64,000 nucleotides of DNA from an uncultured Pelagibacteraceae bacterium (GTDB lineage: Bacteria > Pseudomonadota > Alphaproteobacteria > Pelagibacterales > AG-422-B15): the NCBI GenBank assembly GCA_902564025.1, contig CACEZK010000005.1, forward strand, positions 562-64,561, written 5' to 3'. The notes beneath the pieces are model-generated. The model saw nothing but the letters and a program-made list of their open reading frames with translations, searched no databases and was not told the DNA's origin. Shown piece by piece: positions 45,171 to 49,290 of the stretch (positions are counted from its first letter, which is position 1; each line of letters begins with the position of its first letter). The translations under genes and the position numbers were made by a program.

Positions 45171-45626
45171 ATGAGCAGCTACGTTTTCAAATCAATCATT
45201 GGCAATATTGAGCTTGTCTCAAGCAAAAATAGAATAATCGCAGTTCATAGAACAAGGAAAAAACCTAACAAAACAGAGGATAAGCTTCTGAAAAGATCTG
45301 CGCTTCAAATTAAAATGTATCTTGCGCGCAAAAGACAATCACTTAATTTTCCAACAAAACAAATAGGTACAAAATTTCAAAACCGTGTTTGGAATTATTT
45401 ACGCAAAATACCTTATGGTAGAACAACAACATATGGTGACATTGCAAGGAAATTAAGAACATCACCACGAGCTGTTGGGGGCGCCTTAGGAAAAAATAAT
45501 CTTATGATGACAGTTCCATGTCACAGAGTAGTTGGAAGTAACGGCAAACTCACAGGATTTACATCAGTGGGTGGATTAAGTACCAAAAAAAATTTACTAA
45601 ACATTGAACAAAAAACTAAAAAATAA
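45171..45626 (+). CDS. ogt: methylated-DNA--protein-cysteine methyltransferase
   Basis: GTKFQNRVW, IPYG, RAVG, PCHRV active site. Confidence 0.93.
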   Translation: MSSYVFKSIIGNIELVSSKNRIIAVHRTRKKPNKTEDKLLKRSALQIKMYLARKRQSLNFPTKQIGTKFQNRVWNYLRKIPYGRTTTYGDIARKLRTSPRAVGGALGKNNLMMTVPCHRVVGSNGKLTGFTSVGGLSTKKNLLNIEQKTKK

Positions 45627-46143
45627 ACTTAAGAAGAAAATAAGGGTAATTCCTGATTTCCCTAAAAAAGGTATTCTATTTCAAGACATAACCTCCATAA
45701 CAGACAATAAGATACTTTTCAAAGAGGTCATCAATGAAATCTCGAAGTATGTAAAAAAGAATAAATTTACAAAAATTGCTGCTGTAGAGGCCCGTGGATT
45801 TATATTTGGATCCGCAATTTCTTTCAAAACTGAGATACCATTCGTTCCTATTAGAAAAAAAGGGAAACTTCCTGGAAAAGTACTTAAGCAAAAATACAAG
45901 CTAGAGTATGGAAGTGACGAAATACAAATTCATAAAAACTCTATCCATGAAAAAGATAAGGTTCTGATTATTGATGACTTGATTGCAACTGGAGGAACAG
46001 CATTTGCATCAGCAAACTTAATTAACAAGTGTAAGGTTAAGTATATTGAGTTTTACTTTTTGATTGATCTTAAAAATATTGGAGGCTCAAAAAAATTAGG
46101 AAAGAAATATAAAGTGTCTTCAATCCTAGAAGCTGAAGGTTGA
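45604..46143 (+). CDS. apt: adenine phosphoribosyltransferase
   Basis: PDFPKKGILFQDI, EARGF, RKKGKLP, LEYG, IIDDLIATGGT. Confidence 0.96.
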   Translation: MNKKLKNKLKKKIRVIPDFPKKGILFQDITSITDNKILFKEVINEISKYVKKNKFTKIAAVEARGFIFGSAISFKTEIPFVPIRKKGKLPGKVLKQKYKLEYGSDEIQIHKNSIHEKDKVLIIDDLIATGGTAFASANLINKCKVKYIEFYFLIDLKNIGGSKKLGKKYKVSSILEAEG

Positions 46144-47076
46144 TTATTCAAATTCCATTGAGAATTGTGTATCGCCAAACAAAATCGACGTAACGAACCA
46201 TCCACCACCTCCCGTAGGCACGAATGTAAATCTTGCAGCGTAATCAGGTGAGTACTTATACGTAACTGTACTTGTTTGGTCGGTAATCGTAACAGGGCTT
46301 GAAAATTTATCTTTGATAATTAATCTAGAGGCGTCACTATATGTGCTTGCAAGTTCGCCGCTGTCATTGAGCAAGAAAGTTGAACGATAATTGCCGTTGT
46401 GAGATAATGGTGTGTTATTTACCAGCGTGTTAAGGAATTCGGTCGTTGAAAGAGAATTGTATGTAAAGCTGTAAGTATTGAAGGATGACTGTGATTCAGA
46501 AAATGCTTCTGTAAAGCCAAAATAAGTGCCGCTAAGAAAATCTTCCATAGTCATGTTACGATTACCTCCACCAATAAATCTAGATGCAGGGGGAAAACTC
46601 CAACCTGTTCCCTCGCTATTGCCACCGATCATCAATGTCTCGTCAAATTCAAGTTCCACATTAATTGGAACTGTAGTTGCAATTTCCGCATAAGCTGCTG
46701 TATAGGTGCCTGAAGGAGGTAATGTAGCAGGAAAGCTGGTCTCAGATGATTTTGTTACACCGAAAGAGATGGAGTTATCTCCCTCCGCAGTGTTCCAGAC
46801 ATAATAACAGGGGTCAGTTGTAGAGTTACCCCTTATGAAATCATCTGGATCAGAAGTACACATTGCAAGCTTATAAAATGTTAAACTAAAACTATCGACC
46901 GGTGCATCACACGTTATCGCACCGCCAGGGTTAGTACCAATATTTCCAAGTTCTGATACATCAATCTTACCATCTACCATAGGACAGTTTTCAAAACCAT
47001 TAACAGCGTAGAGATTTACACTGAATGTTAAGAAGTAAAATAGAAATGCAAATGTGAGGAATAATTTTTTTTGCAT
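46144..47076 (-). CDS. secreted beta-rich hypothetical protein with 4 Cys (putative partner of the adjacent beta-barrel)
   Basis: Sec signal ending LYA; Ser/Thr/Gly/Phe-rich; start 1 nt after the upstream gene's stop; no family recognised. Confidence 0.8.
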   Translation of the reverse strand: MQKKLFLTFAFLFYFLTFSVNLYAVNGFENCPMVDGKIDVSELGNIGTNPGGAITCDAPVDSFSLTFYKLAMCTSDPDDFIRGNSTTDPCYYVWNTAEGDNSISFGVTKSSETSFPATLPPSGTYTAAYAEIATTVPINVELEFDETLMIGGNSEGTGWSFPPASRFIGGGNRNMTMEDFLSGTYFGFTEAFSESQSSFNTYSFTYNSLSTTEFLNTLVNNTPLSHNGNYRSTFLLNDSGELASTYSDASRLIIKDKFSSPVTITDQTSTVTYKYSPDYAARFTFVPTGGGGWFVTSILFGDTQFSMEFE

Positions 47077-47077
47077 T

Positions 47078-47971
47078 TTAATATCCTACTATTCTAACCG
47101 TTCCGGTTCGGTTTGTTTGTTTTTTTATTTTATTTTCTCTTCTGACCTTTTCATATTTTCGCTCGCCTACATCGCTAAAACTGTAAAGTGTGTAAGGAAC
47201 AGAAGAATACATTTTTGCCAATTCACTTAATGGTTGGTTTTTATTGCTCTTAAATTCAAAGAGATTTACATTGAGTGTGACAAATTCTTCATCACGTGCT
47301 AATTGATCAAAGCTGGTTTTGCCAAATTCTAGCGTCATGCCGAGAGGAAATTTACTTTTTAGACTGTAAGTCTCACCCTCAAGATCTCTGGAACTGTTTA
47401 TACCGTTCCATGAAAAGACTTCAGCATAGAATTTTGACCTGGGCAGATAAGGAAGTGGAAATGCAATTTGTGCATCATATCCATCAAGAGTATATTCTCT
47501 CAAACCGTCTACTACTACATAGTCCGTTACAGCATCATAATAATTTAAATGTATGTCTCCAAGACTTGTGAGAAAATCTGCTCCGATACCAAAACGTTCG
47601 TGAGAATTGTCTAAATCTAGATCATAAAATAAATTATACCCCATGATTAACTTATTTTCATAAAGGCTGTGCCTTTGCACCAAACCAATATTTAACATTT
47701 CTATATCTGCTTGGGTTGAAAGGTGGCCCTGAATAAAAGTATTTCTATTATTTTGGTCATATAAAGGTAGGATTGTACTTATACCGTATGACGGCTTGCC
47801 TTTGTAAAAGCCTGAGAGGTCAACTTCAATATTTTCAAAAATATCATTCACTGCTAATTCAGCTTTTTCCTCAGCCGTTTCAGCTACTTTTTTTAAAAGC
47901 GTGTTTGCAACCTCACTTCCAAAAGCAATGGATGAACAAAAAAGTGTAATAATGAATAGGACTCGTTTCAT
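47078..47971 (-). CDS. inverse autotransporter (intimin/invasin-type) beta-barrel domain protein without passenger
   Basis: Signal peptide; NIGLVQR, MGYNLFYD, HERFGIG, NYY, GYD, LPYLP, and linker RKYEKVRRENKI (compare invasin RYDLVxRNNxI); ends about 15 aa later. Confidence 0.85.
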   Translation of the reverse strand: MKRVLFIITLFCSSIAFGSEVANTLLKKVAETAEEKAELAVNDIFENIEVDLSGFYKGKPSYGISTILPLYDQNNRNTFIQGHLSTQADIEMLNIGLVQRHSLYENKLIMGYNLFYDLDLDNSHERFGIGADFLTSLGDIHLNYYDAVTDYVVVDGLREYTLDGYDAQIAFPLPYLPRSKFYAEVFSWNGINSSRDLEGETYSLKSKFPLGMTLEFGKTSFDQLARDEEFVTLNVNLFEFKSNKNQPLSELAKMYSSVPYTLYSFSDVGERKYEKVRRENKIKKQTNRTGTVRIVGY

Positions 47972-48024: not shown

Positions 48025-49290
48025 CTATTTATTCATTGATTGAAAGAAATCTGCGTTGTCTTTTGTTTCTTTTAATTTGCCAAGCAAAAATTCGATGGAG
48101 TCCATTGTTCCCATTGGGTTGAGTATACGTCTAAGGACATACATTTTTTGAAGCTCGTCTTTATCAAGTAGTATTTCTTCTTTTCGTGTACCGGACTTAG
48201 TAATATCAATTGCAGGATATATTCTCTTATCAGCAACTTTTCTGTCCAATATAATTTCTGAGTTACCAGTACCTTTAAATTCTTCAAAAATTACCTCATC
48301 CATTCTACTTCCTGTATCAATCAAAGCAGTTGAAATAATGGTTAATGAGCCGCCATCTTCAATGTTTCTTGCTGCTCCAAAAAATCTCTTTGGCCTCTGT
48401 AAAGCGTTTGCATCAACACCACCTGTTAAAACTTTTCCTGAACTTGGAACAACCGTGTTGTAGGCACGACCCAGTCGAGTTATAGAATCTAAGAGAATCA
48501 CAACATCCTTCTTATGCTCCACTAATCTTTTTGCTTTATTGATAACCATCTCTGCGACTTGTACGTGACGCGATGCAGGCTCATCAAATGTTGAGCTGAC
48601 AACCTCTCCTTTTACAGAACGTTGCATGTCAGTAACTTCCTCTGGCCTCTCATCAATTAACAAAACCATCAAATAACATTCTGGATGATTATCAGTAATT
48701 GAATGTGCAATATTTTGCAGTAGGACTGTTTTGCCTGTTCTTGGTGGTGAAACAATGAGCGCTCTTTGACCTTTACCAATTGGTGCAACCAAATCAATTA
48801 CTCTTGAGCTTTGATCGCTTGCTGGTTTTTCTGTTTCTAATCTGATTTGCTCATCAGGATAAAGAGGTGTCAGGTTATCAAAGTTAATTTTGTTTCTACT
48901 TTTTTCGGTTGCTTCGTAGTTAATTGTATCAATTTTTAATAATGCAAAATAACGTTCACCGTCCTTTGGTGCTCTAATCGGACCTTCAACAGTGTCTCCT
49001 GATCTTAATCCAAATCTTTTAATTTGACTTGGACTTACATAAATATCATCTGGACCCGGAAGATAATTAGCCTCCATTGATCTTAAAAAACCAAACCCAT
49101 CCTGTAAAACTTCTAAAACTCCTTCACCGTCAATATCTTTGCTGTCACTCGCAAGAGTTTTCAGTATTTCAAACAGCATATCTTGTGTTCGCATTGAACT
49201 GGCATTTTCAACGCCAAGTTCCTCCGCATAAACAAGAAGTTCTTGTGGAGTTTTTTTCTTAAGGTCTCTTAATTTTAAGTTTTTAGCCAT
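48025..49290 (-). CDS. rho: transcription termination factor Rho
   Basis: [43 protein letters not shown]. Confidence 0.98.

Follow-up and report, generated by a model that had tools for sequence, protein, structure and literature searches.

Within a 64,000-nt stretch of DNA from an uncultured Pelagibacteraceae bacterium (GenBank assembly GCA_902564025.1, contig CACEZK010000005.1, positions 562 to 64,561; hereafter the window, whose positions serve as coordinates unless a separate locus is named), we analyzed two adjoining genes on the reverse strand: gene A (47078–47971 (-)), an open reading frame (ORF) for a 297-aa barrel protein, and gene B (46144–47076 (-)), an ORF for a 310-aa partner. 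Gene A encodes a complete but minimal inverse-autotransporter (type Ve) β-domain, a 12-strand barrel with a linker filling its pore. Together, the two genes probably constitute a dedicated two-protein outer-membrane module in which the partner is held non-covalently by the terminal strand of the barrel. An earlier note, made from the sequence alone, had proposed a candidate two-partner type Ve system here; the pair proved to be real, while the category as such was already in print with ZirT/ZirS.

A minimal inverse-autotransporter barrel

The gene A product matched the Pfam family IAT_beta (PF11924) with E 6.4e-24 and 85.4 bits (cut-off 22.3), residues 29–192 falling on profile positions 30–202 of 279, as the earlier note had expected of such a search. 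No second Pfam family was detected on it at E ≤ 1, so it carries neither a LysM nor an immunoglobulin (Ig)-like domain, in line with the barrel-only architecture described in that note. NCBIfam invasin/intimin models gave only partial, sub-threshold matches. An N-terminal Sec signal peptide (MKRVLFIITLFCSSIAFG, followed by SEV) was read from the translation.

To the signal peptide, an AlphaFold2 (AF2) model built from a 17-sequence alignment (predicted local distance difference test score, pLDDT, 78.1) added a low-confidence helix at 19–45, β-strands over 49–236 and, in the C-terminal part, a helical turn at 237–252, the linker and a three-residue strand at 284–286. The ~27-aa helix in front of the barrel is predicted to be periplasmic. 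Foldseek placed invasin (4e1t; E 3.3e-14, template modeling (TM) score 0.81) and intimin (4e1s; E 4.6e-13, TM 0.80) at the top ranks for this model, and a profile of gene A and its relatives compared with solved structures found the same two (4e1s, E 5e-20; 4e1t, 3.8e-19). Profile positions 52–286 aligned with residues 3–240 of the 242-residue intimin crystal chain. Because the alignment runs through the linker, gene A spans the whole crystallized intimin β-domain plus 11 residues.

The pore-spanning linker and capping strand (residues 269–286, GERKYEKVRRENKIKKQT; 47114–47167 (-)) align with the segment from the intimin linker to the end of the crystallized domain. In the profile alignment, the gene A linker VRRENKIKKQ pairs with intimin VQRNNNIILE, and V276, R278 and N280 are invariant among 17 barrels. 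The capping strand corresponds to the small strand predicted by AF2 at 284–286. Fifteen residues follow ENKI before the stop codon, in line with the figure of about 15 aa in the earlier note. With 11 residues past the capping strand and no Ig family in the Pfam scan, gene A lacks a fused Ig superfamily (IgSF) passenger.

These last 11 residues (NRTGTVRIVGY, residues 287–297; 47081–47113 (-)) form a tail that is the predicted docking strand for the partner. The tail extends past the region homologous to the solved intimin domain, and its motif G-T-[VIL]-[RK]-I-x-G-Y is retained in about 50 orthologues with overall identities as low as 54%. Homology with intimin and invasin would place the tail on the cell-surface side. 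For intimin, the strand at the linker end is described as joining extracellular loops 4 and 5 in a small sheet and as being required for stability (PMC13078405).

An unnamed family of secreted partner proteins

The ORFs and their translation agree with the earlier description of a 310-aa protein with its own Sec signal and four cysteines that begins one nucleotide after gene A. The N-terminus of gene B, as read from the sequence, is a K-rich, hydrophobic, signal-like segment with LYA followed by V, and the cysteines are C31, C56, C73 and C90. Members of the wider family measure about 265–345 aa and have a signal peptide and usually six to eight cysteines. C31, C56, C73, C90 and C168 each occur in at least 90% of 97 partner sequences, gene B having the first four, and disulfides are probably formed by the partner in the periplasm. 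A C-terminal strand is also conserved, often as G-x-G-P-F followed by alternating hydrophobic residues.

Gene B had zero matches in Pfam and NCBIfam. Pfam scans of paralogous and divergent partners returned nothing, and a scan of the 97 family members yielded a single weak match (DUF5006, E 0.0077). CusB was the best Protein Data Bank (PDB) match of the partner profile and, with E 1.1, was taken as chance. The stand-alone AF2 model of gene B is all-β (pLDDT 63.9, predicted TM score 0.65). Foldseek found no PDB match for it at E ≤ 1e-3, the best VIA hit had Z 4.7 and BFVD gave none; as these fold searches used a model of middling confidence, their null result does not establish a new fold. ESM Atlas neighbors of gene B belonged to unnamed clusters only, with DUF4382 at 0.87 as a weak lead.

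At E ≤ 1e-3, the partner profile retrieved 485 cluster representatives, of which 147 reached E ≤ 1e-10, and the best 150 of the 485 matches had lengths of 63–345 aa. A scan with the single gene B protein gave one true relative, its nearest named one, from a Pelagibacteraceae single-cell genome (81% identity), and a weak Prevotella match (26% identity, E 2e-4). The former marks the source as a SAR11-type organism. Sequence features and models thus suggest an unnamed, Sec-type secreted, all-β family.

Conserved pairing of barrel and partner genes

The genome under study contains three paralogous barrel–partner pairs. Besides the window pair (A-type), these are a B-type pair on G000:C9, with a 295-aa barrel and a 290-aa partner separated by 3 nt and immediately preceded by a rhodopsin gene, and a C-type pair on G000:C11, with 311-aa and 329-aa proteins encoded with a 4-nt overlap. 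Between pairs, the barrels are about 30% identical, and partners A and B 26–29%; the C-type partner was found by profile only.

In 61 related genomes, PF11924 matched at 48 places in 32 genomes and a partner profile made from 15 sequences at 47 places in 31. For 43 of the 48 IAT_beta matches, a partner match lay directly downstream on the same strand. The conserved downstream partner anticipated by the earlier note for barrel-only homologues was found in these genomes and again in other families and at metagenome loci. Three of the five exceptions were inspected (G024, G057 and G042, the other two being G018:C49 and G028:C6). Both G024 and G057 have a downstream Sec-type ORF; a locally built partner hidden Markov model (HMM) matches the 373-aa ORF of G024 (E 3e-35) but not the 239-aa ORF of G057. 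The G042 exception is a 270-aa chimeric ORF followed by a further barrel–partner pair. Four of the 47 partner matches had no adjoining barrel match: two at contig starts, one second tandem copy and one fragment beside another partner. When 26 loci were fetched, 25 of their 28 barrel-HMM ORFs were followed by a partner-HMM ORF, with spacings between -4 and +15 nt where these were read. The three misses were G057, the G042 chimera and a locus with a non-ATG start of the partner gene.

The chimeric ORF of G042 (L029 5436–6248 (-)) has a barrel-like start (barrel HMM E 3e-32) and a partner-like end, ...GLFGAEPSVVITFQ. It lies directly upstream of the complete pair and may represent a deletion fusion of an older one.

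The pair is also found in three other alphaproteobacterial families. Among 300 other Alphaproteobacteria (completeness at least 90%), a partner profile built from 97 sequences matched in four, and IAT_beta in 30, in open frames ranging from 285 to 12,720 aa. All four partner-bearing genomes belong to the six whose barrel frame does not exceed 350 aa, with the partner directly following the barrel each time. Of the two short barrels lacking a partner, one ends five residues past the linker and has no tail, and the other is devoid of the linker motif. The 24 genomes having only longer inverse autotransporters gave no match to the partner profile. A phylum-level draw of 400 genomes, of which those shown were all of the same class, yielded zero partner matches. 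A metagenome scan seeded with a distant partner, an NCBI hypothetical protein assigned by name to a Sedimenticola metagenome-assembled genome (MAG), returned 15 loci. A barrel ORF stood directly upstream in 12 of these, and the other three had less than 400 nt of upstream sequence.

The two short IAT_beta proteins that lack the tail or the linker motif (281 and 316 aa; L040 3553–4398 (-) and L041 2842–3792 (+)) have no partner-like gene downstream, which suggests a different use of barrel-only proteins. Metagenome partners at L045 and L053–L057 follow longer barrels of 365–444 aa, some cut by the contig end, which score weakly with the short-barrel HMM (E about 1e-18 to 1e-28) and still end in ...NRASGI-type strands.

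A predicted docking interface between tail and partner

We predicted the complex of barrel residues 19–297 (17-row alignment) with partner residues 25–310 (97-row alignment), using custom unpaired alignments. The interface score ipSAE reached 0.80, 0.76 and 0.77 in three runs, and the best of three controls scored 0.00. At least 76% of contacts were common to the runs, and the partner had a pLDDT of at least 83. In calibration, a result of this level was obtained for 58 of 80 solved complexes and for 2 of 110 mismatched pairs, counts that apply approximately here on account of the custom alignments. Since no related structure has been solved, recall of a known complex by the model is unlikely.

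On the barrel side, the predicted interface consists of residues 287–297 only. The partner would contribute residues 67, 70, 93–94, 103, 105, 107–122, 266 and 268–277, giving about 75 confident contacts. The closest predicted tail–partner pairs are 292–271, 293–272, 294–273 and 295–274 on one side and 294–113, 292–115 and 291–116 on the other. In this arrangement, the tail would run parallel to partner strand 270–276 (TVTYKYS) and antiparallel to 113–116, inserted between two strands of the sheet. The antiparallel side of the putative groove is formed by partner residues 107–122 (VTKSSETSFPATLPPS; 46711–46758 (-)), of which 113–116 are predicted to contact tail residues 291–294 with an expected error of about 1 Å. 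The parallel side is formed by residues 268–277 (TSTVTYKYSP; 46246–46275 (-)), with predicted contacts between 270–276 and tail residues 291–296 at an expected error of 0.7–1.2 Å. The earlier note had suggested that the TVRIVGY strand might insert into the partner; the model places 287–297 in the partner sheet, with a score of 0.77 versus 0.00 for the best control.

Partner conservation among close relatives coincides with this predicted groove. No block of the partner is more conserved than 111–120 (H 0.44 versus a mean of 1.03), and block 271–280 has H 0.57. Across 33 orthologues, interface residues have a mean entropy of 0.56 versus 1.00 for the rest of the mature protein, a value as low as this being obtained in only 44 of 5000 random two-block draws.

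A relative with additional Ig-like domains

An orthologous barrel from genome G029, 43% identical and likewise adjoining rho, carries two Big_12 Ig-like domains past the capping strand (E 5.3e-22) and has two partner genes after it where gene A has one (barrel and tandem partners at L027 2141–3679, 1227–2141 and 309–1208 (-)). A 510-aa protein, P0242, has the same architecture (PF11924 plus PF19078). The first Big_12 domain of the G029 relative begins with VAPTVTIS, the segment aligning with the short-form tail, so that the gene A tail aligns with the first strand of that domain. After its second Big_12 domain, the protein ends with ...PLQITITIKGYAT (...ITITIKGYAT), a strand much like TVRIVGY.

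Judged from these alignments, the terminal strand of the short forms looks like the orphan first strand of an Ig-type domain, and such a strand appears to be kept at the extreme C-terminus with or without intervening Ig domains. A comparison of the partner family with the G029 Big_12 passenger by hhalign revealed no similarity (probability 0.7%). The Big_12-bearing relative keeps both the terminal strand and two partners; the partner therefore seems to be an add-on and not merely a replacement for a lost passenger. The two-partner reading of the earlier note found support in every computational check applied to it (the IAT_beta match, the consistent downstream partner, the predicted docking and the intact junction), but its idea that gene B is a passenger supplied in trans is too simple, as the Big_12 relative keeps its partners and the partner shows no Ig similarity.

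Selection on two separate genes

The junction between the genes reads TAA, a single A and ATG. Orthologues of both genes in the same split arrangement were present in six genomes of the same genus, with 74–95% identity for the barrel and 60–81% for the partner. Two independent contigs from other samples, one from a metatranscriptome library (46850–47341) and one from DNA (46910–47441), bridge the junction without indels; as contigs, they speak to presence and continuity, not to transcript ends, structure or expression level. A sequencing error joining the two ORFs, raised in the earlier note as a possible objection, is thereby countered.

Measured against this genome, the ratio of nonsynonymous to synonymous substitution rates (dN/dS) was about 0.10 for the barrel, about 0.16 for the partner and 0.004–0.021 for neighboring rho, with mean dN values of 0.119, 0.169 and 0.012, respectively. 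Both genes are under purifying selection and evolve much faster than the core gene, the partner fastest. Barrel and partner divergence correlated (r 0.87 across 300 non-independent comparisons), and again the partner diverged faster. No fused barrel–partner protein was found among 36 near-length matches, the best 150 of the 485 profile matches or proteins of 623–2000 aa, the last being a weak test. Recurrence, selection and the lack of fused forms in these sets agree with the view of the earlier note that the signal peptide of gene B argues against a broken fusion.

Proposed mechanism and alternative explanations

In the module that we consider probable, the gene A barrel would insert in the outer membrane with the linker in its pore and present the 11-residue tail, while gene B would be exported separately by Sec. 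TVRIVGY would then slot between two strands of the partner sheet in the manner of donor-strand complementation. The barrel would act as a membrane anchor, and possibly as an export device too, for an exchangeable, faster-evolving surface protein. We infer the extracellular position of the tail, the crossing of the outer membrane by the partner and the role that the partner plays; a function as adhesin or phage receptor, as named in the earlier note, is speculation. It is conceivable, if somewhat doubtful, that the pairs represent a distinct and widespread type V branch, in which a minimal barrel with an orphan Ig-type A-strand as universal 'plug' serves separately exported, fast-evolving proteins of new fold, which would be brought to the cell surface and fixed there through strand complementation.

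Several points weigh against surface docking of the partner. With its conserved cysteines, the Sec-exported partner would be expected to fold while still in the periplasm, and it is hard to see a way out through a 12-strand pore that the barrel's own linker plugs; for both reasons, docking at the surface needs an extra export step. The ZirT/ZirS route is itself presented as disputed (PMC4943183). The interface expresses model confidence from unpaired custom alignments, tail residues 289–297 are poorly ordered in the AF2 model of the barrel alone (pLDDT < 50) and the partner fold matches nothing known. Family-wide (97 sequences), the interface is no more conserved (2.60 versus 2.57, with 2775 of 5000 draws as low), a result that fits type-specific co-divergence and equally fits no constraint at that depth.

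An unlikely but serious alternative is that the barrel works as a ZirT/ZirS-type translocator and releases the partner into sea water, with tail binding as a transient recognition or hand-off step and no permanent anchor. Secretion of ZirS into the medium is reported to depend on the upstream inverse autotransporter ZirT (PMC2270342), two-partner inverse autotransporters have been proposed by Heinz et al. (PMC4943183), and the gene order and Sec signal are as in ZirT/ZirS. In gene A, however, every conserved residue of the pore-plugging linker is kept, and the predicted full strand insertion with its many confident contacts looks like a stable complex. ZirS-type substrates resemble the Ig domains of their translocators, which the gene B partner does not. 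Releasing a 30-kDa protein into the open ocean also looks costly for a streamlined 1.1-Mb genome with three pairs.

We regard it as rather improbable that the tail or the whole linker is periplasmic and that the partner hangs from the outer membrane on the inside. Such a tether would obviate moving a folded, probably disulfide-bonded protein across the outer membrane, the conserved cysteine pattern fits a periplasmic or extracytoplasmic protein, and an alternative topology has been argued for resting ZirT by Heinz et al. (PMC4943183). Speaking against it, the modeled barrel resembles intimin and invasin, its linker lying in the pore, the post-linker segment of these proteins is described as extracellular (PMC13078405), and the Big_12 domains between capping and terminal strand look like an ordinary surface-displayed passenger.

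Two unrelated envelope genes lying side by side by chance is a very remote prospect. This explanation was rejected on the basis of the complex score, which passes where controls give 0.00, and of a pairing conserved in differing genomic contexts, both between paralogues with barrels at about 30% and partners at 26–29% identity and across alphaproteobacterial families. A single inverse-autotransporter gene broken by mutation or sequencing error, for which the 1-nt spacing of the ORFs is the sole argument, is refuted to near certainty by the signal peptide of the partner, the presence of the split in each of three paralogous pairs and in dozens of genomes, the purifying selection acting on the two genes, the independent contigs crossing the junction without indels, and the failure to find fused forms in the near-length, best-150 profile and 623–2000-aa sets.

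Genomic surroundings

The pair is located between rho (48025–49290 (-)), upstream of gene A, and apt (45604–46143 (+)), downstream and convergent with gene B, and the end of apt meets the first base of the gene B stop codon. These coordinates match the placement given in the earlier note. That note had also put the pair about 4 kb from oriC; DnaA-box-like words, counted to test this remark, were no commoner than expected (22 found versus 21.6). A promoter and terminator scan of this AT-rich DNA likewise returned about as many candidates as chance would give. The apt ORF as listed, with a TTG start, overlaps by 23 nt the 3′ end of a preceding 151-aa ORF (45171–45626 (+)), which by eye resembles a methylated-DNA-protein-cysteine methyltransferase; the true apt start may lie further inside the listed ORF.

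For the B-type pair of this genome (L025 4562–6325), the gene directly upstream belongs to the bacteriorhodopsin family (L025 3616–4308 (+); Bac_rhodopsin E 1.9e-46 in the G000 scan). In G020 and G024, the B-type pair is preceded by ORFs identical to this gene in N- and C-terminal sequence (L033 2054–2746 and L031 3869–4561), so this synteny is retained in each of the three genomes examined. The C-type pair directly follows an HlyD-family membrane-fusion gene (L026 255–1457 (+); HlyD_3 E 6.3e-18), an adjacency that is probably coincidence because the C-type pair of G020 has other neighbors.

Implications

Type Ve systems are understood as single polypeptides that carry both anchor and adhesin. 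To our knowledge, ZirT/ZirS and relatives are the only two-piece examples, they come from enteric pathogens and their mechanism is unsettled. SAR11 bacteria are among the most abundant in the ocean, and up to three copies of the pair are found in a 1.1-Mb genome. A displayed partner would probably be a major element of the SAR11 cell surface, with a possible bearing on nutrient capture, grazing and phage adsorption. If the pairs do represent a distinct type V branch as outlined above, SAR11 could change its surface coat by swapping partner genes, of which there are three pairs per genome and some in tandem, while leaving the anchor untouched. It would also answer a question from 2010 on the role of barrel-only alphaproteobacterial Int/Inv proteins.

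For the type V secretion field, the stripped-down system of barrel, linker and one free strand would provide a clean model for in-trans recognition by an autotransporter barrel and for whether and how an in-trans partner crosses the outer membrane. The findings should also be of interest to SAR11 cell biology. A tail peptide that, as predicted, locks into a 30-kDa partner could in addition become a surface-display tool.

Comparison with known systems

In chaperone-usher donor-strand complementation, a strand of one polypeptide completes the β-sheet of another. The predicted completion of the partner sheet by the gene A tail resembles this in mechanism only: no usher, chaperone or pilin family was detected in the Pfam scans, and the donor strand is borne by an outer-membrane barrel. 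Type Vb two-partner secretion, described in PMC2270342 and PMC4943183, combines an Omp85-type transporter barrel bearing POTRA domains (TpsB) with a cargo protein that starts with a TPS domain (TpsA). Separate transporter and cargo genes, both Sec-dependent, are a shared feature; Omp85, POTRA and TPS domains were not found in the Pfam scans of genes A and B, which gave IAT_beta only and nothing, respectively.

Like intimin and invasin (4e1s, 4e1t), gene A has the barrel, the helical turn, a V-x-R-x-N-x-I linker and a capping strand. Unlike them, it has neither LysM nor a fused Ig or lectin passenger and stops 11 residues past the capping strand. Heinz et al. (2016) list a C-terminal IgSF passenger, Big- or fibronectin-like, as diagnostic of type Ve (PMC4943183). 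Gene A belongs to the same protein class as the barrel-only proteins of Tsai et al. (2010), who described the Int/Inv proteins of alpha-proteobacteria, cyanobacteria and chlorobi as being made up of the barrel only and suggested that these might transport or anchor 'non-covalent passenger domains' (PMC3008723). According to that paper, the genome context of short proteins other than those described was uninformative (PMC3008723). A conserved downstream partner family and the predicted docking of a tail go beyond that account.

The closest published counterparts are the 'two-partner inverse autotransporters' of Heinz et al. (2016), which comprise ZirT/ZirS/ZirU, SinH/SinI, Yfr4 and IatB and whose substrates resemble the Ig domains of their translocators (PMC4943183; PMC6714894), with ZirT-dependent secretion of ZirS described by Gal-Mor et al. 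(2008; PMC2270342). The operon logic is that of ZirT/ZirS: downstream of an IAT_beta barrel gene, and in the same orientation, lie one or more genes for Sec-exported, barrel-less proteins, the fate of which presumably depends on the barrel. ZirT is a 660-aa protein with Ig-like domains of its own, in contrast to the passenger-less gene A, and its substrates differ from the gene B partner, which lacks similarity to Ig passengers or to any Pfam or PDB family. A terminal docking strand as predicted for gene A also sets it apart from ZirT as described in the texts examined. The published family is portrayed as almost exclusively gammaproteobacterial (PMC4943183), whereas the gene A/B module occurs in SAR11, in other marine Alphaproteobacteria and, by name, in a Sedimenticola MAG. 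We found no literature describing the partner family or the docking mode, with the proviso that the supplements of PMC4943183 and PMC3008723 may list such proteins. Two-partner inverse autotransporters and alphaproteobacterial barrel-only proteins have thus both been published before, and what is new here is the partner family and the predicted mode of docking.

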